Of a DNA stretch of 64,000 nt, positions 11,079 through 61,440 are shown one piece after another. The DNA is from a bacterium (GTDB taxonomy: Bacteria > JAAXHH01): the NCBI GenBank assembly GCA_965240335.1, contig CBDEKM010000008.1:311072-375071 (forward strand), given 5' to 3'. The notes beneath the pieces were generated by a model that ran no database searches, was not told where the DNA came from, and saw only the letters and a program-made list of their open reading frames with translations. Within the stretch, counting starts at the first letter, position 1; each line of letters opens with the position of its first letter. The translations under genes and the position numbers were made by a program.

Positions 11079-11089
11079 CATCCGGTCTC

Positions 11090-27460: not shown

Positions 27461-27505
27461 GCATTGAGCCACGATAAGGATTCTACGCGACCAGGACTCC
27501 ACAAT

Positions 27506-42158: not shown

Positions 42159-42452
42159 TCAAGTGAGATCACCCTGCCTTTCGCGAAACACGCTTTCCAG
42201 CAAGCCTTCAATTCGGGATACCCTGCTGTCGATATTCGAAACCCTACCGCTCAACTCCCGTATTTCAGATCTCAGTTCACCGGTTTCTTTGTTCATTTCG
42301 GATCGCAGGCTGCCGATCTCAATTCGCATATCGGATCGCAGGCCGCCGATCTCGTTGCGCATTTCTCTCGAATCCGCCTTGAGATCACGAAGCACGTAGA
42401 CGAGTACGGCAATCGTAACGGCCGGTGGAAGCCAGACTGCCAATGCATCCAT
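42159..42452 (-). CDS. N-terminally TM-anchored protein made of 11-residue repeats (xEIGxLRSxMx)
   Basis: 97 aa. TM residues 5-21, then about 6 consecutive 11-mers (ADSREMRNEIG GLRSDMRIEIG SLRSEMNKETG ELRSEIRELSG ...). Confidence 0.5.
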   Translation of the reverse strand: MDALAVWLPPAVTIAVLVYVLRDLKADSREMRNEIGGLRSDMRIEIGSLRSEMNKETGELRSEIRELSGRVSNIDSRVSRIEGLLESVFRERQGDLT

Positions 42453-42456
42453 GTGC

Positions 42457-42999
42457 TCACTCCTGTTTTCGGATCAGCATCCTCAACTCGCCTTCGACGC
42501 GTCCCAACCTGCCGTTCAATTCGTGGATGTCGGATCTGATCGCACGGTGCTCACTCTGCATATCATTCCTGATCGTACGGTGCTCACTCGTCATATCATT
42601 CCTGATTGCTTCAATTTGGTCCTTCAACTCAGTTCTGATCGCCTTGTGTTCACTGCGCATTTCTACCCTGATGGCGTTGAACCCGTCGTGCATTTCCGAT
42701 CTGAGAGTTTCGATCTGGTCCTTCATGTCACTTCTAATATCGCTGTGGTCGCTTTGTATTTCATTTCTGATCGCCTTGTGTTCACTGTGCATTTCTATTC
42801 TGATGGTGTTGAACCCGTCGTGCATTTCCGATCTTAGCGATTCAGTTTGGTCATTCATATCGGTCCTGATCGCCTCGAAACCATCTCTCATTTCGGCACG
42901 TAGCACGTTTGTAGATTCGTCCTGCCAGGTGACTACTGCGACGACAAGCAAGCCGGCTGCTGCCACGGCCTGGATGACGATAATGAGTTTCTGATACAT
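42457..42999 (-). CDS. N-terminally TM-anchored, His-rich protein made of 13 near-perfect 11-residue repeats (x[ED]MxxxxxxIR)
   Basis: 180 aa. TM residues 5-25, then AEMRDGFEAIR TDMNDQTESLR SEMHDGFNTIR IEMHSEHKAIR NEIQSDHSDIR SDMKDQIETLR SEMHDGFNAIR VEMRSEHKAIR TELKDQIEAIR NDMTSEHRTIR NDMQSEHRAIR ... The DNA shows about 120-bp internal near-identical repeats. Confidence 0.55.
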   Translation of the reverse strand: MYQKLIIVIQAVAAAGLLVVAVVTWQDESTNVLRAEMRDGFEAIRTDMNDQTESLRSEMHDGFNTIRIEMHSEHKAIRNEIQSDHSDIRSDMKDQIETLRSEMHDGFNAIRVEMRSEHKAIRTELKDQIEAIRNDMTSEHRTIRNDMQSEHRAIRSDIHELNGRLGRVEGELRMLIRKQE

Positions 43000-43580: not shown

Positions 43581-44702
43581 ATGAGCCGTAAACGCGTCGC
43601 CATCGTCGCAGGCGGCCGCACGCCCTTCGTCAAGTCGGGGAAGGCCTTTGCGGAAATCGATTCCCTGGGCATGGCCGTACACGCCACGCGCGGCATGCTC
43701 GACCGGAGCGGGATCGACCCGGGGCTGATCGAATCCGTGGTCTTCGGCACGATGACGCCCGATCCCCTGAAGCCCAACCTAGCCCGGGAGCTCGTCTTCG
43801 AGGCGGGGTTGCCGATCGGTGCCGAGGCCCAAACCGTGGCCTCCTACTGCATCACCGGGCTGCGGGCGACTACGGTCGTGGCCGACGCCATCGCCGGCGG
43901 CCGTATCGAAGTGGGTCTGGCCGGCGGGGTCGATTCACTGACCCGGGCATCCATGGACCTCTTTAGAGAACCATCAACGGGCCTGACCATGGGTGAGCAC
44001 ATGGAGCTGACCGTCAAGGAGTGGGACATTCCGCGCGAGAGGCAGGACGAGGTAGCCCTGGCGAGCCACCAGAACGCGGTAGCTGCACGCGACAAGCTGG
44101 CAGGTGAAATCCACCCGCTGCTGGGCGAGGAGGCCGACTCGGGCCCGCGGGCCGAAACGTCGTTGGAAGCGCTGTCCGCGCTGAAGCCCGTATTCGACCC
44201 GGAGCACGGCACCCTGACGGCGGGCAACTCGTCGCCGGTGACCGACGGCGCAGCGGCGGTGCTGATGATGAGCGAAGAGAAGGCAGAAGCCGAACAGCTG
44301 GAACCCCTGGCCTTCATCGGCGGCATGGCCTACGCCGCCCACGACCCGGCCGAAGGGTTGCTCATGGCACCGGCCATCTCAGTGCCGCGGCTCCTGGAAG
44401 GAAGGAACCTGACGATGGAAGACATGGACCTGGTAGAGATCCACGAGGCCTTCGCGGCCCAGGCATTGGCCAGCGCGGCCGCCTGGGAACAGGGCTGGAA
44501 AGGCGCGCCCACGGGCGAGGTCGACTGGGACCGGGTGAACGTCAACGGCAGTTCCATCGCCGTGGGCCACCCCTGGGCGGCCACCGGGACGCGCATCCTC
44601 ACGACCCTGGCCAACGAGATGGCTAGGCGCGACGTTCGTTACGGCCTGGTCAGTATCTGTGCCGCCGGCGCCATGGCCGGAGCGTTCCTGCTTGAGCGGT
44701 AG
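43581..44702 (+). CDS. Acetyl-CoA C-acetyltransferase (thiolase II family)
   Basis: Start at MSRKRVAIVAGGRTPF (ATG 43581). Catalytic Cys context VASYCITGLRA. C-terminal GHPWAATGTRIL and CAAGAMAGAFLLER, typical of thiolases. Confidence 0.85.
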   Translation: MSRKRVAIVAGGRTPFVKSGKAFAEIDSLGMAVHATRGMLDRSGIDPGLIESVVFGTMTPDPLKPNLARELVFEAGLPIGAEAQTVASYCITGLRATTVVADAIAGGRIEVGLAGGVDSLTRASMDLFREPSTGLTMGEHMELTVKEWDIPRERQDEVALASHQNAVAARDKLAGEIHPLLGEEADSGPRAETSLEALSALKPVFDPEHGTLTAGNSSPVTDGAAAVLMMSEEKAEAEQLEPLAFIGGMAYAAHDPAEGLLMAPAISVPRLLEGRNLTMEDMDLVEIHEAFAAQALASAAAWEQGWKGAPTGEVDWDRVNVNGSSIAVGHPWAATGTRILTTLANEMARRDVRYGLVSICAAGAMAGAFLLER

Positions 44703-45326
44703 ATTGAAAGGAGGGAGGAATCTGAAATCACGAAAAGAGCCATATTTGTCTATACATCGGGAAAACGATCAAATAAGAGAAGAATCATAAAAAAGTTTTT
44801 GACTGAAGCATATTTACGGTAATAAATACTTGATTTAACAATGGGGAGCTGGTAAACTATCCCATGATTAATCCCACACTTGACAAAAATACAAAAAAGT
44901 TATTGACTTTGGCGCAGTTACGGGATTATTTACTTGATTTTGTAGCACGGTCCATATATACTAAGTCTTGTTTTCCGAAGAGGTTTCAGTCACGGAAAGC
45001 AAAATTGACACACGGTGAAGTAAGCGATACCCTTGCACCTCTTGGAGAGGTTGCAGGATAACGGGTAACGGTTTTCGTATGTTTGCAGTTGCGGTAATGA
45101 CCTTAAGATCATTCAGGTGTAAGAGCGTTTTACTCCACAACGCGCACGTCATTCTAAGGAGAATCAATATATGTGTGTTAGTCCGGTGCGGCCTGAAGCT
45201 AAACACGGTTCTCATGTTGCATTCTCCCGACGGGAATCCCGGTCTGATCATGCCGGCTTTTCCGCAAAGCGTATAGAAATGTGTGATCATCCATCCTTTC
45301 TTATAAGGTTTAAGGAGAATTTACAT

Positions 45327-48300
45327 ATGCGGTACATTTCCAGGTTCAAGAACTCTATACGTGCTTCGAGCGTTTACAGCCTGGCGTTCATGTTTGTGTT
45401 CGCCTTAGCTGCGAACCTGACGACGTACGAAGAAGCCCACGCACAGCGTTCGATTCAGCTGATTGTGGATGCGCCGGACCCTGCGGAATTGATGGAGACC
45501 GGTACTGCGACTACCGTTACGCTGTCAGCTGAGCATGTTGTAATAGATGAGGATTTAGCACTACCGACCGAAGCGATCACTATTACAGTAAAGTTACCCG
45601 TGCTCGAGGGAATGAATCCGGATTATGCCATCACAGACACTGATGGTACCGATGACGGAATGGTGGAGTTAACGCTCACTGGGGCTAGTTCCAATACGGT
45701 TAACTTCACCATAACCCCCCGTGACGATTCTGTCTTTGAAGCGGATAGGACAATTTCATTAACTGGTGAGGCCTCGGGATATGTCGTGCTTGCCGCCAAA
45801 ATCAAACTGCTGGATGACGATCATCAGCTGGAATTGTCAGTCGAACCATCTACGGTAAATGAGGATAAGGGCGAGCAGACGGTGATCGTGACCGCAAACC
45901 TCACTGAAGACGCGCCGTTAGCTACCACTGTGCCGTTGACGATATCTCCTGCGTCGACGTCGTTTTATACTCTTAGCGCTACCGCGCTGTCGATTCAGAT
46001 ATCGGCAGGTTCGAGTTCAGGTACGGCTAAGTTTAACATCACGCCTGTCGACAACGACACTTACGATGGTAACCAGAAGATCAAGGTTGATCTTAATGAT
46101 GCTCAGAGCAATCTGGCACTTAGAGAAGCGAAAGAGATCGTGCTGGCGGACGACGAAAGCCCACCCGCCTTGGATCTCTCCGTATCTCCTTCCAGTATTA
46201 AAGAGGCCAATGGCGCTCAGACAGTGACGGTGACCGCGAAGTTGACAGATGGCGTGCTGTTGTCGTCATCTACAGTGGTCACAGTCAATATCGCTGCCAA
46301 TGACGATCAGTATACTCTGAGCACCAAAGTACTTGCAATAACGATCAGGGCCAAACGTGATTCGGGGAGTGCTAGGCTTACTATTACTCCTGAGCCGGAT
46401 GGAACTTACGAAAGGCACATGGCCATTGGTCTGACCGGTAGAGCGACCATATTGGATGACGTAAACATCAGCGATACTGCGACGGTAACGTTGTTGGATG
46501 ATGATCAGGAAGTTACACTGTCGGTGTCGCCTGCGACGGTAAAAGGCGCAGCGGCGGAGGTAGTCATCACGGCCTTGTTGGATCGGCCAGCCAGGGATGC
46601 CAGTGGTTTCGACGTACCCATAACCATCGGTGAAGCAAATCCCTCCGCATATTCTTTGTCAGCTGAAACTGATGTCGGGCTATCCGGTAATGGATTGACG
46701 ATCACGGTTCCGACTGGATCCTCGATGCGATCAGTGACGGTGACTGTTACACCGGTTGATGTATATGCCGCCGGTAACGCGCAATACAATCGCGATGTAG
46801 AGATTGGCGTTGATGTCGCTGACGCTGGCCCGCTGGGGAGATCAGCCAAGATCACGCTGAAGGACTCGATCGACCGGCCGAAGCTGGAACTGGCGGTGAC
46901 GCCGGAAACTGTGATGGAAGAGCCGGCGATGGACGACGATGCCAATACTGATGGCGTTCAAACTGAATTAACCATCACGGCTACGCTGGACGGCGGGACT
47001 TTTCAAGGCGATTTTGGTGTAGTTGTAGAAATCTCCGAGGATGATGATTTCTATACCGTGTCTTCTAAAGAAGTAACCTTGACTCCCGCCGGTTCTTCGT
47101 CTGGACCATGGACGGGAACAGTGATGGTCACGCCTGATCCGGACAGCAAGTTCGAGGCGTACCAGACCATCTCCTTCTCGGCCAAAGCGACCGAAGCGAG
47201 TCCACCTGACGGAAGTGACGCGATCGAGTTAACGGCAAGCGATACGGTTCAGTTGCAGGACAACGATCATCACGTGACCTTGGCTGTAGAGCCTTCGTCA
47301 GTGACCGAAGAAGGCGGAGAACAGACGGTGATCGTGACCGCAGAACTGACCGCTCCTGCACCGATAGCGACCACAGTGCCGGTGACCTTGTCGCCCACGA
47401 CCTCATCGTTCTACAGTCTGGACGCTCATGTACTGTCAATCCAGATTGGAGCCGGTGCGAGTTCCGGTACGGCGAAGCTGAACGTCACGCCAGTCGACAA
47501 CAACACCTACAATGGTACACAGAAGATCAAGGTTGACATTGCAGACTCGAGTCCGCTGGTACTTCGCGCTACTAAAGAGATCGCGGTGACCGACGACGAG
47601 AATCTACCGGTGATGTCATTGTCGGTGGATCCGGATGAGATCACCGAGGCCGGTGGCGCGCAGACGGTGAGCGTAACGGCTAAGCTGATGGACGGCGTGA
47701 TACTGTCGACGCCCACGGTGGTGACGGTGAAGGTAGTCGACGATGACGAGCAGTATGCGCTGAGCTCGAAAGAGTTCGCGATCACGATTCCTGCCAACCA
47801 GGCAACCATGTCGGCGAACCTGCTCATTACACCTGAACCCGATGGGACCTACGAATCCCACCTGGGTATCGGTCTGTCGGCCGAAGCGACCATCAAGGAC
47901 GGCGATGATGACGTCAAGCTCAGCGCTGCCACGACGGTAACGCTGCTGGACGATGATCAGGAGGTTACGCTGTCAGTGTCGCCTGCGACGGTGAAGGGCG
48001 AAGCGACAGATGTAGTCATCACGGCCACACTGGACCGGCCAGCACGAGGCGTTAACGGTCTCACGGTTCCCGTAATGATCGCGACGGGTGGTAGCCATAG
48101 CTTGACAGATGAAGATGGAAATGCCATAGCTAATGGCCTCGTGAACATCGTGGTCCCAACGAGTGCTTCCGCACAGTCGATTACGGTTACGGTGACACCT
48201 GCCGGTGATTACGCCACCGGAACCGGCTACAATCGGGACGTGGGAATTGACGTTACGGTCACCAGTGCCAGCAACCTGCTGGGCCGGGAGGCGACGATCA

Positions 48301-51300
48301 CGTTGAAGGACTCGATCGACCTGCCGAAGTTGGAACTGGCGGTGACGCCGGAAACTGTGATGGAAGAGCCGGCGATGGACGACGATGCCAATACTGATGG
48401 CGTTCAAACTGAATTGACCATCACCGCCACACTGGAAGGCGGAACCTTTGGGACTGATTTCGAGGTAGTCGTAGAAATCTCCGAGAATGAGGATTTCTAT
48501 ACCTTATCCGCAAACGAGGTGACCTTTACGATTAGCGCGAATGGCACGTCTGGAACCGGAACGGTGAACATCACGCCTGACCCGGACAGCAAGTTCGAGG
48601 CGTACCAGACGATCTCGTTCTCGGCCAAGGCGACTGAAGATGTTACTGAAGATGCGATCGAGTTGACGGCAAGCGATACGGTTCAGTTGCAGGACAACGA
48701 TCATCACGTGACCCTGTCCGTAGAGCCTTCGTCAGTGACCGAGGATGGCGGAGAGCAGACGGTGATCGTGACTGCGGAACTGACCGCTCCTGCGCCGATA
48801 GCGACCACGGTGCCGGTGACCTTGTCGCCCACGACTTCGTCGTTCTACAGTCTGGACGCTCATGCGTTGGCGATTCAGATTGGAGCCGGTTCGAGTTCCG
48901 GTACGGCGAAGCTGAACGTCACGCCAGTCGACAACGACACCTACAATGGCACCCAGAAGATCAAGGTTGACATTGCAGACTCGAGTCCGCTGGTACTTCG
49001 CGCATCTAAAGAGATCGTGGTGACCGACGACGAGAATCTGCCGGTGATGTCTTTGTCGGTGGATCCGGAGGAGATCACCGAGGCCGATGGCGCGCAGACG
49101 GTGAGCGTGACGGCGAAGCTGATGGACGGCGTGCTGCTGTCGACGCCCACGGTTGTGACGGTGAAGGTGGCCGACGATGACGAGCAGTACGCACTGAGTT
49201 CGAAAGAGTTCGCGATCACGATTCCTGCCAACCAGGCAACCATGTCGGCGAACCTGGTCATTACACCTGAGCCCGATGGGACCTACGAATCCCACATGGG
49301 TATCGGTCTATCGGCCGAAGCGACCATCAAGGACGGCGATGATGACGTCAAGCTCAGCGCTGCCGCGACGGTAACGTTGCTGGACGATGATCAGGAGGTC
49401 ACGCTGTCGGTGACTCCAGGTACTGTGAAGGGCGACGCGACAGAGGTTATCATCACGGCCACGCTGGACCGGCCGGCTCGGGGCAACAACGGTCTCACCG
49501 TACCCGTAATGATCGGGGCTTCAGGTGACAGCGGTTATAGTTGGTCAGCTGAAGGTGTAACCAGCCCAAGTCCTGGCGATGTGGTGAACATCGTGGTCCC
49601 AACGAGTGCCTCTGAGCAATCCATGGCGGTGACGATTACTCCTACTGGTGATTACGCCACCGGAACCGGCTACAATCGGGACGTGGGAATTGACGTTACG
49701 GTCACCAGTGCCAGCAACCTGCTGGGCCGGGAGGCGACGATCACGTTGAAGGACTCGATCGACCTGCCGAAGTTGGAACTGGCGGTGACGCCGGAAACTG
49801 TGATGGAAGAGCCGGCGATGGACGACGATGCCAATACTGATGGCGTTCAAACTGAATTGACCATCACCGCCACACTGGAAGGCGGAACCTTTGGGACTGA
49901 TTTCGAGGTAGTCGTAGAAATCTCCGAGAATGAGGATTTCTATACCTTATCCGCAAACGAGGTGACCTTTACGATTAGCGCGAATGGCACGTCTGGAACC
50001 GGAACGGTGAACATCACGCCTGACCCGGACAGCAAGTTCGAGGCGTACCAGACGATCTCGTTCTCGGCCAAGGCGACTGAAGATGTTACTGAAGATGCGA
50101 TCGAGTTGACGGCAAGCGATACGGTTCAGTTGCAGGACAACGATCATCACGTGACCCTGTCCGTAGAGCCTTCGTCAGTGACCGAGGATGGCGGAGAGCA
50201 GACGGTGATCGTGACTGCGGAACTGACCGCTCCTGCGCCGATAGCGACCACGGTGCCATTGACCTTGTCGCCCACGACTTCGTCGTTCTACAGTCTGGAC
50301 GCTCATGCGCTGGCGATTCAGATTGGAGCCGGATCGAGTACCGGCACGGCGAAGCTGAACGTCACGCCGGTCGACAACGACACCTACAATGGCACCCAGA
50401 AGATCAAGGTTGACATTGCAGACTCGAGTCCGCTGGTACTTCGCGCTTCTAAAGAGATCGCGGTGACCGACGACGAGAATCTGCCTGTGATGTCTTTGTC
50501 AGTGGATCCGGAAGAGATCAACGAGGCCGATGGCGCTCAGTCGGTGAGCGTAACGGCTAAGCTGATGGACGGCGTGCTGCTGCAGACGCCCACGGTTGTG
50601 ACGGTGAAGGTGGCCGACGATGACGAGCAGTACGCACTGAGCTCGAAAGAGTTCGCGATCACGATTCCTGCCAATCAGGAATCCATGTCTGCGAACCTGG
50701 TCATTACGCCGATACCGGATGGAGCGTACGAAGCTCACATGGGTATCGGTCTGTCGGCCGAAGCAACCATCAAGGACGGCGATGATGACGTCAAGCTCAG
50801 CGCTACCGCGACGGTAAAGCTGCTGGACGATGATCAGGAGATCACGCTGGCGGTGTCGACCGCGACGGTGAAGGGCAAGGCGACGGACGTAGCCATCACG
50901 GCTATGCTGGACCGGCCGGCCCGCGGTACTAACGGTCTCACCGTACCCGTAATGATCGGTGCCGACGGCGATGATCAGTATACTTTGTCGTCTGAAGGTA
51001 CCCCCAGTCTCGCACCAGGTGGCACGGTGAACATCGTGGTCGCCACAGGTACATCCGCGAAATCGGTAACTGTAACGGTGACGCCAGCCGAGACCTATGT
51101 CGCAACTGACATGAATTACGATCGTGATGTAGGGATCGATGTTACGATCGCTGATGGCACAGCTTTGCTGGGCCGGTCGACGAAGATCACGCTGAACGAC
51201 TCGATTGATCTGCCGAAGCTGGAACTGGCGGTGACGCCGGATACTGTGATGGAAGAGCCAGCAGTGGATGCTGATAATGATGCAGCTAATGGCGTTCAAA

Positions 51301-54300
51301 CGCGGCTGACCATCATGGCCACGCTGGACGGTGGAACCTTTACGAACAATTTCGATATTGTCGTAGAAGTTTCACAGGATACTGATTTCTACAGCGTGTC
51401 CTTGGAAGAGGTAACATTAACTGGTTCTGCTAACGGACCCTGGACCGGAACGGTGGATATCACGCCTGATCCGGACAGCAAGTTCGAGGCGTACCAGACA
51501 ATATCGTTCTCTGCCGAAGCGACCGAGCAGAATCCTCCTGCGGGAAGCGATGCGATCGAGTTGACGGCAAGCGATAAAGTGCAGTTACGTGACAATGATC
51601 ATCACGTGACGCTGGCTGTAGATCCAGCTTCAGTAAATGAAGAAGACGGAGTACAAACGGTAGAGGTGACGGCGATGTTGACCGCACCTGCGCCTGTAGC
51701 TACCACGGTGCCGGTGACGTTGTCGCCTGCGACCTCGTCGTACTACAGTCTGGACGCTCATGCACTGGCAATAGAGATCGGGGCCGGTTCGAGTGAAGGC
51801 ACGAAGGAACTTAACATCACACCGGTCGACAACGACACCTACAATGGCACCCAGAAGATCAAGGTTGACATTGCAGATTCAAGTCCCCTGGTACTTCGCG
51901 GTTCGAAAGAGATCTCGGTAATTGACGACGAAAGCCTGCCGGTGCTCGCACTGACAGTGGATCCGTCCGAAGTTAACGAGGGTGGTGGCGCTCAGTCAGT
52001 AAGCGTGACTGCTGAACTGGTCGACGGTGTCGTGTTGCAGACGCCTACAATCGTAACCGTGAAGGTGGACGCCGATGACGATCAGTATGCGTTGAGTTCA
52101 AAAGAGTTTGCGATTACGATTCCAGCCAATCGGGATTCGAGATCCGCGGACTTGATTATTACTCCTAAGTCTGATGGATTGTTCGAAGCTCACATGGCAA
52201 TAGGTCTGTCGGCAGAAACAACCATCAAAGACGGCGATGATGACGTAGATCTCAGCGCTGCAGCGACGGTAACGCTGTTGGACGATGATCATGAAGTCAC
52301 GCTATCGGTTTCACCTGGTGAGGTGTCGGAAGTTGGCGGAAGCTTTCCTGTGACTGTAAAGGCAAGATTGAATAGTCCCGCAAAGAGTGACCTCACGATA
52401 CCGGTTGAGATCGAAACATATGATGAGAATGCGAATTCTCATCCTATCGGGTTTACCGTGACGGATACTGACAACACACCGAATGACGGTATGGTTGATA
52501 TTTCCATTGCCGCTGGAAAGTCAGAGGCGTCAACTACGGTGATGATCGCCGCGACATACAATGCCGATCATACCGAAAACGCTGTCATTAACGTAACAGG
52601 AGGAGATATCGCATTATCGGTTAGACCAACAACAATCTTGATCAGAGACTACGAACAGGTCTCTATACAGTTATTGGCTAGCCATCCCAGTATCACTGAA
52701 GCCGGAGGTTTACAGACTGTTGAGATCACGGCTGAAATAACACCCAATGCAATCGGTGATGATGTAGCTATCAGTCTAGCAGTCGGTGGACAGGCGACAC
52801 TGAATGAAGATTTCGGCGTTAGTGGTTTGCTGGAAATCGAAATCGGTGCCGGTAGTACCGAGGGATCGACGGAACTTACCTTCATACCGGTTGACGATTT
52901 TGTGAATGAGTTCAACGAGACGATTACGGTTTCTGGTTCAACAGTTGGCGGACATAGTGTTAGCTCGGTATCCATTGTGTTGGCTGATAACAATGAGATA
53001 CCACTGGCTAGTATCTCGGCGCCTTCAGTTGAACTTAGCGAAGCTGATGATGCCGTAACCGAGATCGCAGTAACTGCTACGCTGGCTGGAACGAGTGGTG
53101 AACCTATTAATGTAGTGCTTGATATTAATGGTTCGGCCACGGCCGGTGTTGACTATGAGGTTAGTGGAGATCTCAGGTTCTCGATAAATCCCGGAGACAG
53201 CAGTTACACGGCTAATGTCGCAATCACGGTCTTGGATGATGCGCTCTATGAGGGTAATGAGACCGTTGTGATCGAAGCCAGCGCGTCCTTGGGAGATCTT
53301 GAACTACCCAATAGATCTCAACCATTGAGATATATGATTATTGACAACGATTCGGCACCGATGATTGCCCTCTCAGTGGATGTAGAAACAATAAATGAGG
53401 GTGACGAAGCGACGGATGTGACCATCACTGCCACCGCATCCAGTGCTAGTGCCGTCAACATTCCAATCACGTTGGCCAAGCCTGGTACGGCCGTAATTGG
53501 TGAAGACTTCATGGTCTCGTCCGAACAGGAAGATTTCATCATAATCGCAGGCGAAACTACAGCAACGAAGGTAGTGACGATCACGCCGATCGATGATGAA
53601 ATCTATGAAGGTGACGAGCACTTCATGGTCAACGGTACGGTACCGGGTTCCGACGGTGAAATAGACGTCGACGGCACGATGATCACGCTGACTGACAACG
53701 ATGATGTGCCGACGGTTGCACTGACCGTGGAACCCGATATGATTGCTGAGGGTAGTGAAGTCGAATTCACGATCACGGCCACGCCGTCTCACATGAGTTC
53801 CATGCCGATTACAATCGTACTGGACAAGTCGGGTGGATCGGCTACGCTTGGCGAGGATTTCGAGATTGTAGCGGCTACCGAAGGCGAGTACGTGATCGAA
53901 GCGATGGATTCGTCCGCTACGAAGATGGTCACGCTTTCGGCTATAGCCGATATGCTCTACGAGCAGGAAGAGATCATCGTTGTGGGTGGAATGTCAATGG
54001 CAGGTGATTCGGAAGGCATAGCGGTTATGACTGACGAGATCACGCTGACCGACGGCGATCCGATGCCGATGGTCACGCTGATGGCGGACATGGAGTCGAT
54101 CAATGAGAACGGCGAGGCCGTGGACGTAACGGTTACGGCCATGCTTTCCGGTTTGAGTTCCATGCCCATCACAGTGGAACTGGCCAAGTCCGGTTCGGCC
54201 ACGAAGGGCGAGGACTACACCGTAACCGGCGAAGGTGCAATCACGGTTGCTGCCGGCGATGAAATGGGTATGACGATACTGACGATCGTTCCGGTAGATG

Positions 54301-57300
54301 ACGATGTCTACGAACGCGATGAGATGATTGTCATAGGCGGTACGGCCGGCGATGAAATAGCCCAAGCCGCGTCGATCACCTTGGTGGACGACGATCCGAT
54401 GCCGATGGTGGTACTGATGACGGACGTGGTGTCTATCACCGAGAACGGTGGAGCCCAGGAAGTGACGGTAACGGCAACGCTGTCCGGCTTGAGTTCTTTG
54501 CCCATCACGGTTGAACTGGCCAAGTCCGGTTCGGCCACGAAGGACGAGGACTACACCGTAACCGGCGAAGGTTCCATCACGGTTGCTGCCGGCGATGAAA
54601 TGGGTATGACGATACTGACGATCGCCCCGGTAGATGATGATGTCTACGAACGCGATGAGATGATTGTCATAGGCGGTACGGCCGGCGATGAAATAGCCCA
54701 GGCCGCGTCGATCACCCTGGTAGACGACGAAACGAAGCCGATAGTGGAACTGATGACGGACGTGGTGTCTATCACCGAAGACAGTGGAGCCCAGGAAGTG
54801 ACGGTAACGGCAACGCTGTCCGGCTTGAGTTCTATGCCCATCACGGTTGAACTGGCCAAGTCCGGTTCGGCCACGAAGGGCGAGGACTACACCGTGACCG
54901 GCGAAGGTTCAATCACGGTTGCTGCCGGCGAAGAAATGGGTATGACAATTCTGACGATCGCCCCGGTAGATGATGTTGTCTACGAACGCGATGAGATGAT
55001 TGTCATAGGCGGTACGGCGGCCGGTGACGAAGTGGCTACGACAGCATCGATCACGCTGGTCGACGACGAAACCATGCCTACGATTGCCCTTTCAGTAGAC
55101 ACTGATTCCGTGATGGAGGATGGCGGCGATCAGGAGGTCGTGGTTACCGCGACGGCATCCGGCTTGAGTTCCATGCCCATCGATGTTGTACTGGCGAAGT
55201 CCGGTACGGCCATTAAGGGCGAGGATTACACTGTGACCGGCGATGGTACGATCACGGTCGCGGCTCTTGCGATCGACGGCGTTACGACGCTGACAATCAC
55301 ACCTGTAGACGACGACGTCTATGAGAATGATGAGACGATCGTGGTTGGCGGTGAAGGTGTGTTGGAATCGGCAACGGTGACGCTGGTTGATGACGAAACC
55401 ATGCCTATGTTCACGCTGATGGCGGATCCGTCGGCGGTCATGGAGAATGCCGGTCCTACGCCTGTCGTAGTGACGGCGACCGCTTCGGGACTTAGTTCGA
55501 TGCCCATGACCCTGACGCTCCTTCCGTTACCGGATCAAGGCACCATTACGATTGGTGAAGACGCGGGCGTGACGGGTGATCTGTTCATCACAGTTGTCCC
55601 CGGTGCGCTGGAAGGCAGCACGACACTGACGGCATTGGTTATTGACGACGATATCTACGAGGGCGACGAGTACGTTGTGATCGTTGGAAATATAGGTGAT
55701 ATGGTCACGCCATCCATTACACTGACCATCATCGATGACGAAATGCAGCCGACGGTCACGCTGTCGCTGGATCCCGAGGCCGTGGAAGAAGGTGGCGGAG
55801 CGCAGCCCTTCACCGTATCGGGTGAAGCTTCCGGCAGAAGTTCAATGGACATGACAGTCATGCTCGGTCCGTTGCCGACGAGTACGGTAACGCTGGGTGA
55901 AGACGGCATAGTCGATGGAACCATGTCGTTCGTCATATCCGCGCTGGAGACCGAAGGCAGCACGACGCTGACGGCCGTGCCAGCGGATGACGATCTCTAC
56001 GAGACGACGGAGTACCTGGTCGTCGGCGGTAGTGTGAACGGTGTACCTACTGCCAACGCGGTGACGCTGGCGATCATGGACAACGACTCGCCGGACGTAG
56101 CGTTGAGCGTGAGTCCGACAGCTATTCGTGAAGACGGCGGCGCCCAGACGGTCACCGTGGAAGTGGTGATGTCAGGTATACCAGTACCCGTACCGACAGA
56201 TATTTCGCTGGCCCTGTCGGGTACGGCCGGTAACGCCGATTACACCATGTCCGGTACGCCGACTCTGCAGATTGCCGCCGGTGAAACGACAGCGTCGACG
56301 CAGTTGACTTTCGCGGTTGTTCCCGACGATATCTACGAGCCAAGTAACGAGACCATCGTACTAACGGCGAATTGGAACGCCACGAATATCGGTTCAGCTA
56401 CAATTAACGTGATCGACGATTACGCTCCGCCTTCGGTAATTAGCGCGCTTCCCGCGATATCATTGGAAGCCGGTGATTCGAGGCAAATGGATGTGGCTGG
56501 TACTTTCAGCGGCCGGGTTCTGGTGTTCGCGGCAACATCTTCGGATGTCGGCATAGCCACTGCAACGCTTTCTGGATCGGCACTGACGATCGAGGGAGTG
56601 CGCAAGGGTGCGGCGCGGGTCACGGTCACGGCGACTAATGACGCGTCGTCCGCGAGTTACGATATAGATGTAACCGTCACGGCAATTGCTGCAGAGCGGG
56701 AAGTCTATACCGACATCCTGGCGGCTATGGCACGGAGCATCATGTCGAGCGTCTCGCAGACGATCGGCGGTCGGTTCTCCGTTGGCGCAGCGGAACGTCA
56801 GATCGCGCTGGCCAACAGGCGTGTGGACGGAATGGCGGCCGGTTTGGAAGCCATGATCAGCCTGTCCGGTGCTCAGTCGACAAGAAAGTACGGTATCACA
56901 GATGATACCACGAATCGGCTTAGCAGGCAGCCGGTCTCCACCCGTGAACTGATGCGCGGTACGTCCTTCTACTACGCCCTCGACGATGCACCTCAGGGCG
57001 GTACGAACGGCGGATTGAGCTTCACGATCTGGGGAGCTGGTGACTGGAATGCCTTCGAAGGTGCGCATGATGTGGGCACCAGTTACGACGGAACGGTGAC
57101 CTCCGGCTATCTCGGTATCGATGTATCGAAGACCGCCAGCTGGATCGCCGGTGTGGCTGTCGGACGTACCATGGGTACTTCGGACTACGATGTAACCGTC
57201 ACTGACGGAACGTTGGAAGCCACCCTGAACAGTGTGTATCCTTACGTACACTGGACGGGTCCCGGTTGCTGCATCGAAATCTGGGCTATCGGTGGTTTCG

Positions 57301-58121
57301 GTACGGGTGAAGCCGAAGTAAGCGACGGTACGAGCGACCTGTCCATGAGTCTGGGTATGGTCGGTGTGCGCGCCCAGTTGGTCGGCGCTGCATCGGGCGG
57401 TCTGGACCTCGACCTGATCGGTGACGCAGGAATGACCAAGCTGTCGACGGCTGACAGCGAGTCCGCTTCCCTGAGCGACCTGGAAGCCAGCGTACAGCGC
57501 GTACGCGTGGGTCTCGAAGCTTCACGTACCTCCGACATGGGCAACGGCATGCTGGTAACGCCTTTCGCCCAGGTAGCCGGTCGGTATGACGCAGGTGACG
57601 GTGATACGGGTAACGGTCTTGAAGTTGCCGGTGGTCTTCGGATTGCCGGTGGCAGGGCTGGTCTCGAAGCCCGCGGTCGCCTGCTTGCCATGCATACTGG
57701 CGAAGAAGTCAAGGAGCACGGCGTGTCGGTGGTTGCTTACGTGAGGCCGATGGGCGCCGGCGGACAGGGTCTGTCGATGGCTATCGCTCCTCGTCTCGGC
57801 GCTGATACCGAAATGTCCAGTAACATCTGGCGCGAAGAACCGATGAACGACGTTAGAAGTTCGTCTCGGTCAGGCGTCGGTATGAAAGCTGAAATCGGTT
57901 ACGGTCTCCTGACTCCGATGATGAGCAGCATCGTGGTGACTCCGTTCGGTACGATGGACATGGCCGGTGATGACCAGCGCCGCATGCGTCTTGGCGCACG
58001 GTTCGGTTCCATCGGCGACACGACTACCGTACTGAGATTCGAGCTCGTTGGCGAGCGCATCGACGGCAACGGCCGTGCGACGGATCATCGCATCGGCCTG
58101 CTCGGTAGGATGAGCTTCTAA
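45327..58121 (+). CDS. Giant (4264 aa) surface protein: signal peptide, >35 Calx-beta/Ig-like repeat domains, Big_2-like domain, C-terminal autotransporter-like beta-barrel
   Basis: AAGGAG SD 9 nt before ATG 45327. Signal peptide MRYISRFKNSIRASSVYSLAFMFVFALAANL. Recurrent Calx-beta signatures (GEDYTVTGEG..ITVAAGDEMGMTILTIVPVDDDVYERDEMIVIGG). Penultimate Big_2-like unit. Final ~430 aa show alternating-hydrophobic beta-strand patterns and end in ...LLGRMSF. GC about 52% versus about 63% in flanks. Confidence 0.75.
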   Translation: MRYISRFKNSIRASSVYSLAFMFVFALAANLTTYEEAHAQRSIQLIVDAPDPAELMETGTATTVTLSAEHVVIDEDLALPTEAITITVKLPVLEGMNPDYAITDTDGTDDGMVELTLTGASSNTVNFTITPRDDSVFEADRTISLTGEASGYVVLAAKIKLLDDDHQLELSVEPSTVNEDKGEQTVIVTANLTEDAPLATTVPLTISPASTSFYTLSATALSIQISAGSSSGTAKFNITPVDNDTYDGNQKIKVDLNDAQSNLALREAKEIVLADDESPPALDLSVSPSSIKEANGAQTVTVTAKLTDGVLLSSSTVVTVNIAANDDQYTLSTKVLAITIRAKRDSGSARLTITPEPDGTYERHMAIGLTGRATILDDVNISDTATVTLLDDDQEVTLSVSPATVKGAAAEVVITALLDRPARDASGFDVPITIGEANPSAYSLSAETDVGLSGNGLTITVPTGSSMRSVTVTVTPVDVYAAGNAQYNRDVEIGVDVADAGPLGRSAKITLKDSIDRPKLELAVTPETVMEEPAMDDDANTDGVQTELTITATLDGGTFQGDFGVVVEISEDDDFYTVSSKEVTLTPAGSSSGPWTGTVMVTPDPDSKFEAYQTISFSAKATEASPPDGSDAIELTASDTVQLQDNDHHVTLAVEPSSVTEEGGEQTVIVTAELTAPAPIATTVPVTLSPTTSSFYSLDAHVLSIQIGAGASSGTAKLNVTPVDNNTYNGTQKIKVDIADSSPLVLRATKEIAVTDDENLPVMSLSVDPDEITEAGGAQTVSVTAKLMDGVILSTPTVVTVKVVDDDEQYALSSKEFAITIPANQATMSANLLITPEPDGTYESHLGIGLSAEATIKDGDDDVKLSAATTVTLLDDDQEVTLSVSPATVKGEATDVVITATLDRPARGVNGLTVPVMIATGGSHSLTDEDGNAIANGLVNIVVPTSASAQSITVTVTPAGDYATGTGYNRDVGIDVTVTSASNLLGREATITLKDSIDLPKLELAVTPETVMEEPAMDDDANTDGVQTELTITATLEGGTFGTDFEVVVEISENEDFYTLSANEVTFTISANGTSGTGTVNITPDPDSKFEAYQTISFSAKATEDVTEDAIELTASDTVQLQDNDHHVTLSVEPSSVTEDGGEQTVIVTAELTAPAPIATTVPVTLSPTTSSFYSLDAHALAIQIGAGSSSGTAKLNVTPVDNDTYNGTQKIKVDIADSSPLVLRASKEIVVTDDENLPVMSLSVDPEEITEADGAQTVSVTAKLMDGVLLSTPTVVTVKVADDDEQYALSSKEFAITIPANQATMSANLVITPEPDGTYESHMGIGLSAEATIKDGDDDVKLSAAATVTLLDDDQEVTLSVTPGTVKGDATEVIITATLDRPARGNNGLTVPVMIGASGDSGYSWSAEGVTSPSPGDVVNIVVPTSASEQSMAVTITPTGDYATGTGYNRDVGIDVTVTSASNLLGREATITLKDSIDLPKLELAVTPETVMEEPAMDDDANTDGVQTELTITATLEGGTFGTDFEVVVEISENEDFYTLSANEVTFTISANGTSGTGTVNITPDPDSKFEAYQTISFSAKATEDVTEDAIELTASDTVQLQDNDHHVTLSVEPSSVTEDGGEQTVIVTAELTAPAPIATTVPLTLSPTTSSFYSLDAHALAIQIGAGSSTGTAKLNVTPVDNDTYNGTQKIKVDIADSSPLVLRASKEIAVTDDENLPVMSLSVDPEEINEADGAQSVSVTAKLMDGVLLQTPTVVTVKVADDDEQYALSSKEFAITIPANQESMSANLVITPIPDGAYEAHMGIGLSAEATIKDGDDDVKLSATATVKLLDDDQEITLAVSTATVKGKATDVAITAMLDRPARGTNGLTVPVMIGADGDDQYTLSSEGTPSLAPGGTVNIVVATGTSAKSVTVTVTPAETYVATDMNYDRDVGIDVTIADGTALLGRSTKITLNDSIDLPKLELAVTPDTVMEEPAVDADNDAANGVQTRLTIMATLDGGTFTNNFDIVVEVSQDTDFYSVSLEEVTLTGSANGPWTGTVDITPDPDSKFEAYQTISFSAEATEQNPPAGSDAIELTASDKVQLRDNDHHVTLAVDPASVNEEDGVQTVEVTAMLTAPAPVATTVPVTLSPATSSYYSLDAHALAIEIGAGSSEGTKELNITPVDNDTYNGTQKIKVDIADSSPLVLRGSKEISVIDDESLPVLALTVDPSEVNEGGGAQSVSVTAELVDGVVLQTPTIVTVKVDADDDQYALSSKEFAITIPANRDSRSADLIITPKSDGLFEAHMAIGLSAETTIKDGDDDVDLSAAATVTLLDDDHEVTLSVSPGEVSEVGGSFPVTVKARLNSPAKSDLTIPVEIETYDENANSHPIGFTVTDTDNTPNDGMVDISIAAGKSEASTTVMIAATYNADHTENAVINVTGGDIALSVRPTTILIRDYEQVSIQLLASHPSITEAGGLQTVEITAEITPNAIGDDVAISLAVGGQATLNEDFGVSGLLEIEIGAGSTEGSTELTFIPVDDFVNEFNETITVSGSTVGGHSVSSVSIVLADNNEIPLASISAPSVELSEADDAVTEIAVTATLAGTSGEPINVVLDINGSATAGVDYEVSGDLRFSINPGDSSYTANVAITVLDDALYEGNETVVIEASASLGDLELPNRSQPLRYMIIDNDSAPMIALSVDVETINEGDEATDVTITATASSASAVNIPITLAKPGTAVIGEDFMVSSEQEDFIIIAGETTATKVVTITPIDDEIYEGDEHFMVNGTVPGSDGEIDVDGTMITLTDNDDVPTVALTVEPDMIAEGSEVEFTITATPSHMSSMPITIVLDKSGGSATLGEDFEIVAATEGEYVIEAMDSSATKMVTLSAIADMLYEQEEIIVVGGMSMAGDSEGIAVMTDEITLTDGDPMPMVTLMADMESINENGEAVDVTVTAMLSGLSSMPITVELAKSGSATKGEDYTVTGEGAITVAAGDEMGMTILTIVPVDDDVYERDEMIVIGGTAGDEIAQAASITLVDDDPMPMVVLMTDVVSITENGGAQEVTVTATLSGLSSLPITVELAKSGSATKDEDYTVTGEGSITVAAGDEMGMTILTIAPVDDDVYERDEMIVIGGTAGDEIAQAASITLVDDETKPIVELMTDVVSITEDSGAQEVTVTATLSGLSSMPITVELAKSGSATKGEDYTVTGEGSITVAAGEEMGMTILTIAPVDDVVYERDEMIVIGGTAAGDEVATTASITLVDDETMPTIALSVDTDSVMEDGGDQEVVVTATASGLSSMPIDVVLAKSGTAIKGEDYTVTGDGTITVAALAIDGVTTLTITPVDDDVYENDETIVVGGEGVLESATVTLVDDETMPMFTLMADPSAVMENAGPTPVVVTATASGLSSMPMTLTLLPLPDQGTITIGEDAGVTGDLFITVVPGALEGSTTLTALVIDDDIYEGDEYVVIVGNIGDMVTPSITLTIIDDEMQPTVTLSLDPEAVEEGGGAQPFTVSGEASGRSSMDMTVMLGPLPTSTVTLGEDGIVDGTMSFVISALETEGSTTLTAVPADDDLYETTEYLVVGGSVNGVPTANAVTLAIMDNDSPDVALSVSPTAIREDGGAQTVTVEVVMSGIPVPVPTDISLALSGTAGNADYTMSGTPTLQIAAGETTASTQLTFAVVPDDIYEPSNETIVLTANWNATNIGSATINVIDDYAPPSVISALPAISLEAGDSRQMDVAGTFSGRVLVFAATSSDVGIATATLSGSALTIEGVRKGAARVTVTATNDASSASYDIDVTVTAIAAEREVYTDILAAMARSIMSSVSQTIGGRFSVGAAERQIALANRRVDGMAAGLEAMISLSGAQSTRKYGITDDTTNRLSRQPVSTRELMRGTSFYYALDDAPQGGTNGGLSFTIWGAGDWNAFEGAHDVGTSYDGTVTSGYLGIDVSKTASWIAGVAVGRTMGTSDYDVTVTDGTLEATLNSVYPYVHWTGPGCCIEIWAIGGFGTGEAEVSDGTSDLSMSLGMVGVRAQLVGAASGGLDLDLIGDAGMTKLSTADSESASLSDLEASVQRVRVGLEASRTSDMGNGMLVTPFAQVAGRYDAGDGDTGNGLEVAGGLRIAGGRAGLEARGRLLAMHTGEEVKEHGVSVVAYVRPMGAGGQGLSMAIAPRLGADTEMSSNIWREEPMNDVRSSSRSGVGMKAEIGYGLLTPMMSSIVVTPFGTMDMAGDDQRRMRLGARFGSIGDTTTVLRFELVGERIDGNGRATDHRIGLLGRMSF
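46491..52263 (+). repeat. Four tandem 1443-bp (481-aa) super-repeats inside the giant gene; copies 2 and 3 include >550 bp of 100% identity
   Basis: Units start with LLDDDQEVTLSVSPATVKG... at about 46491, 47934, 49377 and 50820. Identical spurious antisense ORFs at 48504-48707 and 49947-50150 (offset exactly 1443) confirm the period. Flanking repeat sequence is about 97% identical. Confidence 0.85.
54056..55060 (+). repeat. Three near-identical tandem 330-bp (110-aa Calx-beta) repeats, within a longer array of diverged copies (about 53340-56100)
   Basis: PMVTLMADMESINENGEAVDVTVTAMLSGLSSMPITVELAKSGSATKGEDYTVTGEG...ASITLVDDD repeated with only a few substitutions. Antisense ORFs 54308-54538 and 54644-54874 are near-identical. 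Confidence 0.8.
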
Positions 58122-58201
58122 GGACCGAAACAAAAATACCTGTTCGGGGTCAGCCTTAAGCGCCGACCCCGAAGGGCGTTTCTCGAAACGCCTGGAACAT
58201 G

Positions 58202-58260
58202 AAAGGGCGTTTGCAGGATCCGGTAAAAGACCAACCGGAAAATGCAGACGCCCTTTTCTT
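58202..58260 (+). terminator. Candidate intrinsic terminator of the giant gene: 14-bp stem (AAAGGGCGTTTGCA / TGCAGACGCCCTTT, one G-U), structured 26-nt loop, U-tract
   Basis: Arms at 58202-58215 and 58243-58256 followed by TTTTCTTT. Two shorter GC hairpins sit upstream (58145-58171, 58175-58192) without U-tracts. Confidence 0.4.
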
Positions 58261-58437
58261 TGGTATCTGTTCTTCAGTAACTTGGCCGTTTAACTGCGGA
58301 AAATGTAATGCGGGACCTGAGGCAGGAATGGGGCTCACCAAACGGGAGGAATTGAAGAAAATCGGTTTAAGGAAACCCAACGCTGTGGTCAATACACAGA
58401 GGTTGACTGTTTAATCTTCAATCGATATTTCGTTTTG

Positions 58438-60348
58438 TTAAAGGAACTTTACTGCCGTGTTTTTCGGATGAGGGTATACGTCTCGAGATATTCGATAGGA
58501 TCTTAATGCCCCGATCATATCACCCTTCTTCTGTAGAAACTCTCCATTAAGGTTGTATAGCCAGGCCTGCATCGGTTTGGACGTCGCTTCGCGCTTTCTG
58601 TATTCGGCTAGCGATATCCAATCGGAGACCTGTTCCCAGTAGGTTTGATTGCCGTATCGAAGCAGGGATGTTGCCATACCGATCAGACCGGAGTATTGCT
58701 CCGCCGCAAGGTCTATCAAGCCGCCCATCGAATCGAGGTACAGCGGATTTCCAGAATAGGTGACTATGCCCAAATACCGGCCGTATTCAAACATCAACTG
58801 ATTTCGAAGGTGTCGTTCCCAACGATCGACCGGTTGACTGTGGACAAGGCGCGTGAAGAATTCCTGTCCGCCGTCGTGGGGGTATAGTTCTATCGTTCCG
58901 GATTCAATCTCCCTTATGGCTTCACACAGAAAGCCGTAGTACCTGACACAACGGATGGGAAACAAACTCGTGTCTCCAATCACGAAAAGTCTGCGGTCGT
59001 TACTGTCGATGTACCGTTGTAGAATTTCCTTCCGTATTGGGATTTTCTCGAATGGACCGTAGAGGCGGTTGCTGTATATGAGACCGTCCAATGCATAGAA
59101 ATCGACATCCGGGCGGAGGTTTTCCACGTACTTGAAATACCCGATCGGCAGGACATTGTCGCCGTTTACGAACAACGCCGTGTTTTCTGGCAGAAAATCC
59201 AGGATAGTCTTTACGTATTATTCGGCGAAGTCACTCTCCGAACGGTCATTTGATTCCAGATTTCGATGCACCGACCAGCCGGCCATCGTAGTGAGGAAAA
59301 CCGCCGATAGATCTGCAATCAACAGTGACCTTTGGACGGTCTGAAAATCGCTATTCTGAAAAAATCGAAATCGTACCTGATGAGGGTGATCAATACGATA
59401 CTGTTGCCGAGTAAAACGAGTAGTCCCGACACAACGTGATAAACCCGCCGATTTTTCAAGAGGACTACAAGACCGATCACGGCGAGTGCGAAACCTGGAA
59501 GTGTCAGTTGCCAGACCAGCTCGTTGCCCAGCCACTGCAAGTATTCCAACCTGTCGTGCCACCCCGCGCTTGGGCTTGCGTCAGCGTAAGCGTATCCCCT
59601 TCGACTTACGTAGATCCAGAACTTCCTGAGTGAATTGATCGGACCGTAAAAGCTGATGGGTGTAATCTGGTTCGAGCGCCATACCATCCAGATGTACGGC
59701 ACGATGGTGGACAGCAGCAAAGCGCCGATATGCCGGGTCAGATTCCGATATAGGAAACGCCTTACTGGTACGGCCGGAAAAACCAATCCAGGCGTGGACA
59801 GTATCATCAGCGGCCAGTGATTGGCGAGGCTGAACCCGTAACATATGGCGCCCATGGTCCAGACCCAGGTTCGGTTTGGTTGGCGGACGCCGTACAGCAC
59901 CAGCCCTATACAGTCCGAATAAAAACAGCGCGTTTAACGTGTAGACCTCGGTGATAATCGCCTGGGACCAGAAGTGCTCGGAGGCTGCGAACAGCCAGGA
60001 CGAGGCGAGGGACGGAACCATGGATACACTCATCAGACGGGCGCACAGGTAAACACATCAGCATGCCAATGTGCCCAGCACCGCGCTGGACAGATGTCCC
60101 AGGAAAGCTGGACTCCCGAACGGAAGCTGAGTAAAGAGATAGACGATGAGATTATGAACAGGGTATTCGGGTGGGTGGGCTACACCGAGATGCGCGCCGG
60201 CCATGAGAAACAGCCCGTCGTCTTCCAACACCACCGTCAGGGGCATCGTAAAAACATATAAGTCCAAAGGTCCAAAAACTGATGCGGCGAGCGCCGGTCC
60301 ATCGTTATTGGCGTCGAACCACTTCGAACCGTCACGGTTTCGATTCAT
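58438..60348 (-). pseudogene. DUF2723 (GT117/TMEM260-like putative protein O-mannosyltransferase) gene, fragmented by 2 in-frame stops and 2 frameshifts
   Basis: N-terminal fragment with the family signature GAHLGVAHPPEYP (60058-60348). In-frame TGA at 60058-60060 (...GTLAC*CVYLCARLMSVSMVPSL...). Frameshift near 59890. Frameshift at an A7/T7 run near 59350. In-frame TAA at 59218-59220 (...SDFAE*YVKTILDFLPENTALFVNGDNVLPIGYF...). Lower GC (~48%). Confidence 0.55.
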
Positions 60349-60996: not shown

Positions 60997-61440
60997 ATGT
61001 CGAAAGGCAAGTTCTGGCACGATGGCGTGAAGTTCAGTTGTCAGCAATGTGGGCACTGCTGCACCTTTCCGGGCGGGTTCGTGTACGGCAGCGAAAAGGA
61101 ATTCCGGCGCATCGCCGAATACCTGAACCTACCCTTCGAGACCTTTCTGGAACGTTACACGGAGGAGATCGACGGGAAAGTCTCGTTGGTATCGCCGGAC
61201 AACGGACCGTGCGTTTTCTATGACAACGGATGTTCGATCTATCCGGTGCGGCCGTCCCAGTGCAGCAGCTATCCCTTCTGGCAGGACATTCTTAAATCCC
61301 GGAGACGATGGGAACGGGAAGCAGAGATGTGCCGGGGCATGGACCGCGGTAAGCAGTGGACTCGAAAGGAGATCGAGTCCCAGGTCAACGCGAGGGCAAC
61401 GAATCTCATGAACGCTGAATCGAGGGAGGACGAATCATGA
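60997..61440 (+). CDS. YkgJ family (UPF0153) cysteine-cluster protein
   Basis: Start at MSKGKFWHDG. CQQCGHCC ... CVFYDNGCSIYPVRPSQCSSYP cysteine pattern typical of YkgJ/Fe-S-or-zinc cluster proteins. Confidence 0.65.
   Translation: MSKGKFWHDGVKFSCQQCGHCCTFPGGFVYGSEKEFRRIAEYLNLPFETFLERYTEEIDGKVSLVSPDNGPCVFYDNGCSIYPVRPSQCSSYPFWQDILKSRRRWEREAEMCRGMDRGKQWTRKEIESQVNARATNLMNAESREDES

Follow-up and report, generated by a model that had tools for sequence, protein, structure and literature searches.

Probable gene conversion within a conserved four-unit super-repeat of a giant predicted surface protein with Calx-beta-like domains

The window analysed here, a 64,000-nt stretch of contig CBDEKM010000008.1 (positions 311,072 to 375,071) from an uncultivated bacterial lineage, carries on its plus strand a giant gene that contains an array of long, closely similar repeats. 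Two in-frame ATG codons, at 45171 and 45327, could open this gene; they lie 156 nt apart and each is preceded by AAGGAGAAT, with AAGGAG 7-8 nt to the 5' side of both. We regard ATG 45327 as the likely start codon because AAGGAG lies upstream of it, because it opens on a signal-peptide-like sequence and because the gene start called on L008, the closest relative found, maps exactly to window position 45327. The upstream ATG would add a 52-amino-acid (aa) extension that is unlike a signal peptide. In the translation from 45327, the N-terminus (MRYISRF...AHAQ) has a basic N-region, a hydrophobic core and the sequence AHA-Q, suggesting a Sec-type signal peptide. Behind it stand a first domain (d01), a C-D pair, four copies of an A-B-C-D block, a degenerate A' domain, eleven more Calx-beta domains, a Big_2-like domain and a predicted barrel, where the letters denote domain types and d01 to d31 the consecutive domains of the chain (Table 1).

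The super-repeat consists of four complete in-frame tandem units (U1-U4) that together span 46455-52238. Unit boundaries were anchored by a conserved 79-nt motif (family D12), found at 46455, 47907, 49341, 50784 and 52239. An original prediction made from the sequence alone had placed four near-identical units of 1443 bp inside the giant gene at 46491-52263. The four units were confirmed; the predicted span covers the same array in an arbitrary phase, and the period holds exactly for the spacing from U2 to U3 but not for the other units, which measure 1452, 1434 and 1455 nt. The central units are more alike than the edge units. Whole-unit DNA identity is 92.7% between U2 and U3 and 82-83% between U1 and either of these, and U4 is the most diverged full unit, with 73-76% identity to the others. 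The array is flanked on its 5' side by a partial, diverged unit 0 (about 55-67% identity), in which d02 and d03 share 62-70% aa identity with domains C and D of the complete units. It is closed by the A'-type domain d20, the counterparts of which are 37% (L004) and 76% (L008) identical to it. The array was not reported by Tandem Repeats Finder, solely because the longest period considered was 500.

In the same-offset self-comparison, a single exact match was found at offset 1443. It links U2 to U3 over 611 nt, longer than the stretch of more than 550 bp at 100% identity that had been predicted. The left edge of this tract is sharp and the right edge decays gradually: the next 400 nt on the 3' side are 95.0% identical (20 differences, lower than the predicted value of about 97%) and the next 526 nt, counted from the same edge, 93.0%. 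Over their first ~300 nt, U2 and U3 differ by indels and share just 50-85% identity; this variable, position-specific part of domain A stops abruptly at the left edge of the tract. The 113 differences between U2 and U3 over 1443 aligned positions were permuted 20,000 times, giving a longest identical run of 64 nt on average and 166 nt at most; an analytic bound for the 611-nt tract is P~1e-25. A shorter stretch of 85 nt is identical in U1, U2 and U3, at offsets of 1446 and 2889. No shuffle reached an 85-nt run (the longest were 76 and 82), and this stretch may be the remnant of an older conversion event.

To define the domains, a hidden Markov model (HMM) was seeded from the four domains of U3 and iterated on the protein and its orthologues. 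It recognised 31 consecutive domains of 107-130 aa each over aa 95-3751, including all the Pfam-positive Calx-beta domains, which it scored at E 1e-24 to 1e-35. Pfam itself sees Calx-beta only in the C-proximal half of the protein (104.8 bits for the whole protein), where six of the eleven domains d21-d31 are matched (best E 3.6e-8), and a single whole unit has no Pfam match. With hhalign, the 18 unit domains aligned to the 11 C-proximal Calx-beta domains with a probability of 99% (E 7.4e-18, 107 aligned columns). The AlphaFold2 model of U3 has four all-beta, beta-sandwich domains in a row, with 7-9 strands each and a mean predicted local distance difference test score (pLDDT) of 79.7, in line with the seven-stranded sandwich of Calx-beta. 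Searched with Foldseek, this model retrieved chains of Ig-like domains, including the Ca2+-stabilised tetra-tandem adhesin repeats 4p99 (MpIBP RII) and 6xi3 (LapA-like adhesin); a search of the PDB sequences with the unit-domain profile gave no match. Weak Pfam LapA-domain matches occur among the domains, and every domain junction carries an acidic DDD/DDE/DND motif in the translation. The unit domains have mostly lost the 'G.A..G.DY' and 'YE.DE' motifs, which appear in the consensus of the C-proximal domains. On these profile comparisons and this model, each unit is a set of four mutually divergent, Calx-beta-like beta-sandwich domains. The N-terminal 428 aa matched no Pfam family above threshold and no distal ligand-binding head was recognised there; the domain HMM identifies d01 (aa 95-217) as another Calx-beta-like domain, and a novel head domain in the N-terminal region is possible.

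Downstream of the super-repeat, four tandem single-domain Calx-beta repeats form a second, independent array, in which two copies are 85-87% and the fourth copy 68% identical in DNA to the reference copy. Adjacent domains are 65-90% identical in aa sequence in this 336-nt array, compared to 22-33% in the super-repeat. The Ig domain between the Calx-beta chain and the barrel is a weak match to the domain HMM, and the Big_2-type domain at the C-terminus of the phage lambda tail tube protein V is matched by a profile of the C-terminal family (E 0.003). The C-terminal 473 aa score 34.1 bits against the Pfam autotransporter family PF03797 (cut-off 26), with the best stretch at profile positions 2-76 of 255. 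The whole protein scores 22.5 bits, under the cut-off, and homologues carry PF03797. Scans of the protein found no NCBIfam match on the whole sequence, and no RTX (HemolysinCabind) or related match in Pfam or NCBIfam. The original prediction had called this a surface protein, and the predicted signal peptide, the beta-sandwich domains and the autotransporter-like barrel lend that view computational support; we infer a location on the cell surface.

Table 1. Features of the giant gene and its surroundings (window coordinates)
Feature	Position	Strand	Remarks
Giant gene	45327..58121	+	4264 aa from ATG 45327 (likely start); open reading frame (ORF) 45171..58121, 4316 aa from ATG 45171
Predicted N-terminal signal peptide, MRYISRFKNSIRASSVYSLAFMFVFALAANLTTYEEAHAQ	45327..45446	+	read from translation
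Partial diverged unit 0	about 45771/45822-46505	+	C-type and D-type domains only (d02, d03), 5' of array
Super-repeat unit 1 (U1)	46455..47906	+	1452 nt, 484 aa; A-B-C-D = d04-d07
Super-repeat unit 2 (U2)	47907..49340	+	1434 nt, 478 aa; A-B-C-D = d08-d11
Super-repeat unit 3 (U3)	49341..50783	+	1443 nt, 481 aa; A-B-C-D = d12-d15
Super-repeat unit 4 (U4)	50784..52238	+	1455 nt, 485 aa; A-B-C-D = d16-d19
Stretch identical in U1, U2 and U3	46885..46969 = 48331-48415 = 49774-49858	+	85 nt
Variable position-specific part of domain A	U2 47958..48203; U3 49392-49646	+	50-85% identical, indels
Identical tract, U2 copy	48204..48814	+	last third of domain A, whole domain B, first third of domain C
Identical tract, U3 copy	49647..50257	+	611 nt, 100% identical to U2 copy
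Degenerate A'-type domain d20	52290..52655	+	closes array; 29-34% aa identity to A domains
Second independent array	54038..55397	+	four tandem single-domain Calx-beta repeats, 336-339 nt, d25-d28
Big_2-like Ig domain	56556..56771	+	between Calx-beta chain and barrel; weak domain-HMM match
Predicted autotransporter-type outer-membrane beta-barrel	57030..58118	+	C-terminal
GC-rich 12-bp hairpin	58143..58173	-	22 nt after stop codon; consensus scan, scored as terminator on minus strand

To compare the divergence of the units domain by domain, synonymous divergence (dS) and the ratio of nonsynonymous to synonymous divergence (omega) were calculated by the Nei-Gojobori method on codon alignments. 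Between U2 and U3, dS is strongly mosaic. Domains A and D stand at 0.35 and 0.28, C at 0.07, and B at 0.00, with not one synonymous change at its roughly 88 synonymous sites; for all other pairs of units, dS in domain B is 0.45-0.82. Had a whole unit been duplicated recently, dS would be uniform and close to zero. The mosaic argues for gene conversion instead, and is explained by a conversion tract that overwrote the end of A, the whole of B and the first part of C. Wherever divergence between two units was measurable, omega lies at 0.15-0.41, both over whole units and within each of the four domains; the units are therefore under purifying selection and functional. In the variable part of domain A omega is 0.28-0.41, exceeding the 0.15-0.26 of C and D. 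Positive selection was considered for this part and is unsupported, as its values are well below 1.

Relatives of the gene were sought by scanning species-representative genomes with the C-terminal 617 aa, and five loci were found. L001, L003 and L004 have the same neighbours as the window, with a thiolase gene upstream and L-PSP, CxxCxxCC and SelA-like genes downstream, and are therefore orthologous. The products vary widely in length, from 4316 aa in the window through 3036 + 1104 aa (L004), 2960 aa (L001) and 1498 aa (L002) to 559 aa (L003). The short L003 orthologue (9860-11539) has a signal peptide and the C-terminal region without a Calx-beta passenger, and about 8 kb of other genes lie between it and the thiolase gene. 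L004 has the domain order of the window, d01-C-D-(ABCD)x4-A'. Its units are 45-71% identical in aa sequence to each other and 28-52% identical to those of the window, with no positional signal: window d05 is 28% identical to L004 d05 and 39% identical to L004 d09. Orthologous unit domains thus reach only 28-52% between the two loci, compared to 55-100% for paralogues, and the C-proximal domains d23, d24 and d29-d31 have clear one-to-one orthologues at 76-88%. L001, a chromosome-level metagenome-assembled genome (MAG), carries four copies of an independent super-repeat, each comprising four domains and 1308-1311 nt, between which exact runs reach 716 nt, and L002 has four single-domain repeats at 73-85% identity. 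A further relative of this gene, L005, bears the label Candidatus Latescibacterota. Queried with a single unit, a protein search gave 11 matches at no more than 33% identity and missed L008, so it is incomplete for a repetitive query, and a metagenome scan returned one relative only, L006, at an uninformative 30% identity.

The closest relative, L008 (contig ERZ25067264:ctg783774_6x_l), was found by searching with the barrel. It is colinear with window 46704-55324 over 8.7 kb at 80.8% DNA identity, with no unit-sized indel, and frame-independent domain mapping recovered an unchanged succession of domains from the tail of d04 up to and including d24. The first product called on L008 has 1551 aa, ends at L008:3279 and begins about 1.4 kb before the start of the locus; since the called gene start maps to window 45327, L008 has no extra units upstream. 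At the syntenic locus, L008 and the more distant L004 keep the same d01-C-D-(ABCD)x4-A' order, so the four units predate the split of the lineages. The original prediction had expected the array to drive copy-number variation in a surface protein. This was not borne out, as all three comparable lineages (window, L008 and L004) have four units, and the number of units looks old and stable, even though orthologue length elsewhere ranges from 559 to 4316 aa. Copy number truly varies in the region of the single-domain array at 54038-55397, where the window has d24-d25-d26-d27-d28, L008 has a duplicated d24-d25-like pair at a spacing of 696 nt, and L004 has one domain for the window's four.

We then aligned the four window units (W1-W4) with those of L008 (E1-E4, of which E1 is partial). 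The edge units keep an orthology signal (W1-E1 84%, W4-E4 82%). Units 2 and 3 resemble each other within a lineage (W2-W3 93%, E2-E3 96%) more than they resemble their orthologues (83-86% between window and L008). The homogenised segment differs between the two lineages: between units 2 and 3, domain B is 100% identical in the window (95% in L008), and domain A is 99% identical in L008 (82% in the window). Orthology to L008 is retained in the variable part of domain A for three units (W2-E2 81%, W4-E4 81%, W1-E1 76%), and domain A of U3 is 82% identical to that of U2 and 72-73% identical to that of every L008 unit. Conversion events have thus occurred independently in two lineages on an array of already fixed number, which is concerted evolution.

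The relatedness of L008 is itself a mosaic. Its super-repeat region is about 81% identical to the window and unalignable to L004, its C-terminal 3 kb are 89.6% identical to L004 and 77% to the window, and its downstream genes are 89-92% identical to L003, which suggests recombination between related lineages at this locus. Frameshifts occur in two of the orthologues, at 9195-9228 in L004 (a chromosome-level MAG) and at 3279-3463 and 8223-10001 in L008, splitting the giant gene into products of 3036 + 1104 aa and into five ORFs, respectively. They could be sequencing errors, pseudogenisation or slippage.

We consider it likely that the array is an old, copy-number-stable block of four units that evolves in concert by gene conversion, and that the 611-nt tract marks the latest such event. 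The original prediction had left open very recent duplication or gene conversion, and the evidence favours the latter of the two. Were U3 a new copy of U2 that has since been diverging, these adjacent units would be expected to be the most similar pair, as they are (92.7%), with an exact 1443-nt offset and a 611-nt identical core. The dS within the pair, however, spans 0 to 0.35 by domain, their first ~300 nt differ by indels, domain A of U3, distinct both from that of U2 and from that of every L008 unit, is an old lineage, and L008 and L004 hold four units at the same positions, making whole-unit tandem duplication a very improbable account. Selection for a fixed nucleotide or amino-acid sequence in domain B could also keep the tract identical without recombination, and would accord with the stronger conservation of domains B-D than of domain A among the units; it is scarcely credible given a complete lack of synonymous differences in a domain where other unit pairs are far from identical. 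Nor is the tract invariant across units or related species: in L008 domain B stands at 95%, not 100%, and it is domain A that reaches 99% instead. The Rfam scan of the window also found no RNA family or structured element that such selection might maintain.

Several points weigh against the conversion reading and its wider setting. The sequence of one genome cannot separate gene conversion from a cycle of duplication plus deletion by unequal crossing-over. An assembly artefact is a further concern, either as a collapsed array with a higher true number of units, of which the original prediction had warned, or as polishing with multi-mapping reads that homogenised U2 and U3. Near-identical repeats that exceed short-read inserts are classic problem sites, and that part of the warning holds. 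An artefact is nevertheless quite unlikely, and collapse with it: the array keeps its reading frame perfectly, and diverged edge units flank its four complete units; the same unit count is found in two independent assemblies, and the units of L004 are too diverged to collapse; the longer exact repeats within the gene of the chromosome-level L001 make such repeats characteristic of the gene family; and the window belongs to a contig of 405 kb. The L008 contig has low coverage ('6x' in its name) and contains frameshifts; its unit count is taken from colinearity and from how long the called product is. When the N-terminal 376 aa served as a protein query, no match exceeded 46% identity and none came from the same species. 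As for the domains, only one of the 18 super-repeat domains matched Pfam PF03160, at E 0.005, which failed the threshold. The barrel model (~365 aa, ~18 strands, pLDDT 69) is of moderate confidence and the Pfam Autotransporter match covers only the first third of the profile. The modelled fold is autotransporter-like, yet Foldseek ranks TonB-dependent receptors first, and because of this ranking, the ~18 strands and the partial Pfam match we regard strict membership of type Va as a possibility only. The role of the protein as an adhesin or stalk is suggested by its architecture only.

Taking gene conversion as the preferred explanation, the following arrangement can be proposed. The four super-repeats would make up the outer section of a passenger that is shaped like a rod and 31 domains long, and the protein would most likely be a long, Ca2+-stiffened stalk or adhesin on the outer membrane. 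Long stretches of high identity spaced 1.4 kb apart would be substrates for RecA-type intragenic recombination, in which non-reciprocal gene conversion, or equivalent paired unequal exchanges, would repeatedly copy stretches into a neighbouring unit. Conversion tracts would end where identity drops, and the 611-nt stretch, which abuts the diverged part of domain A on its left, would be the footprint of the latest event. The four-domain period would keep identical domains about 480 residues apart, and because of this period neighbouring domains are no more than 33% identical, below about 35%. The idea that divergence between adjacent domains limits interdomain misfolding is cited in the paper on Periscope Proteins (PMC8201768), and the period of four domains would fit that idea. 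We also considered that the super-repeat might be a functional design, in which B, C and D are a homogenised scaffold and the conversion-resistant A segments present a fixed set of four or five different binding loops, each at a given height along the stalk. If this rather unlikely reading were true, selection would hold the number of units constant and bound the conversion tracts, and the four-domain period would serve to keep identical domains non-adjacent, thereby avoiding interdomain misfolding. Finally, the barrel is unusually large, at ~365 aa and ~18 predicted strands, and could possibly be a distinct variant of autotransporter translocator suited to pre-folded Ig-like passengers.

Among known systems, the closest parallels are the Periscope Proteins and fibrillar adhesins, such as SasG/Aap, Rib, Sgo_0707 SHIRT, Esp and CdrA, in which tandem domain repeats of high DNA identity can recombine and so give rise to differences in length (Whelan et al. 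2021, PMC8201768). The giant protein resembles this class in its predicted surface anchoring, its rod of folded domains, its long and similar DNA repeats (1434-1455 nt, 73-93%) and the large length differences within its orthologue family (559 to 4316 aa). In contrast to that class, the repeating unit here is a four-domain block of about 481 aa, with adjacent domains 22-33% identical, rather than a single domain; the unit count is conserved in the three comparable lineages; the overall identity of the units, 73-93%, is below that of the classic examples; and the Pfam scan of the N-terminal 428 aa recognised no distal head. With the giant adhesins secreted by type I systems (MpIBP of Marinomonas primoryensis, LapA/LapF, SiiE and BapA) it shares a multi-thousand-residue rod of Ig/Calx-like beta-sandwiches with acidic linkers. 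Unlike these RTX or type I adhesins, it has no RTX nonapeptide repeats or type I secretion signal, and has a predicted signal peptide and C-terminal barrel instead; MpIBP, moreover, has about 120 near-identical single-domain repeats, as opposed to the four-domain period seen here. Classical type Va autotransporters (AIDA-I, NalP, Hbp and EstA) have a beta-helix passenger in place of a Calx-beta/Ig-like chain, and solved autotransporters have 12 strands, compared to the roughly 18 predicted here with moderate confidence. Concerted evolution of intragenic repeats is known from the streptococcal alpha C/Rib repeats and the yeast FLO adhesins (PMC3512402). As in those cases, paralogues are closer than positional orthologues, identity is mosaic and the central repeats are more homogenised than those at the edge. 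Unlike in those cases, homogenisation has proceeded here without a detectable change in unit number and has spared a position-specific segment of domain A.

The locus is thus an instance of intragenic gene conversion that is still going on, with tracts that arose independently in two sister lineages; the gene encodes a giant Calx-beta protein, predicted to be surface-located, of an uncultivated bacterial lineage. Near-identical repeats alone imply neither recent duplication nor an unstable copy number, since here the count is conserved and the sequence homogenised. Gene-converted repeats are familiar behaviour of repetitive surface proteins, and this array is a well-resolved example rather than a new principle that would change the understanding of repetitive adhesins. 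For annotation, this is one syntenic locus whose orthologues range from 559 to 4316 aa and are fragmented in low-coverage long-read contigs.

The giant gene lies in a region of distinct base composition. GC content is 0.50-0.59 across 44001-60000, compared to 0.60-0.64 in the rest of the window, GC skew is strongly positive over the same interval (+0.06 to +0.13), and the intergenic region 5' of the gene (44703-45326) is AT-rich. The hairpin behind the stop codon is a plausible end of the transcription unit, and in consensus scans for promoters and terminators the number of hits was not above the shuffled expectation. A tRNA scan of the window found no tRNA. Minus-strand ORFs of 100-266 aa inside the array were dismissed as the usual antisense ORFs of GC-rich coding sequence, and they recur because the array itself repeats.

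Elsewhere in the window, the SelA-like aminotransferase gene downstream is single (61437-62795), as in L003; there are two copies in L001 (13178-15973) and L004 (13979-16798) and three in L008 (13944-18142). Tandem repeats of 33 nt and 132 nt at 42294-42999 lie inside a minus-strand ORF of 180 aa (42457-42999), which has apolipoprotein-like or coiled-coil Pfam matches below the cut-off and a weak counterpart in L001. A neighbouring lactonase gene (38994-40055), recorded in the public collection on a contig of 405,297 bp, belongs to a 90%-identity cluster of 145 members, the named members of which are Gemmatimonadota MAGs; the window is therefore probably from Gemmatimonadota. A second giant ORF, on the plus strand at 27464-33526, encodes a product of 2020 aa that contains six Big_2 domains and numerous leucine-rich repeats and matches Peptidase_M66 weakly, consistent with a surface protein of eukaryote-like repeats and a host-associated lifestyle.

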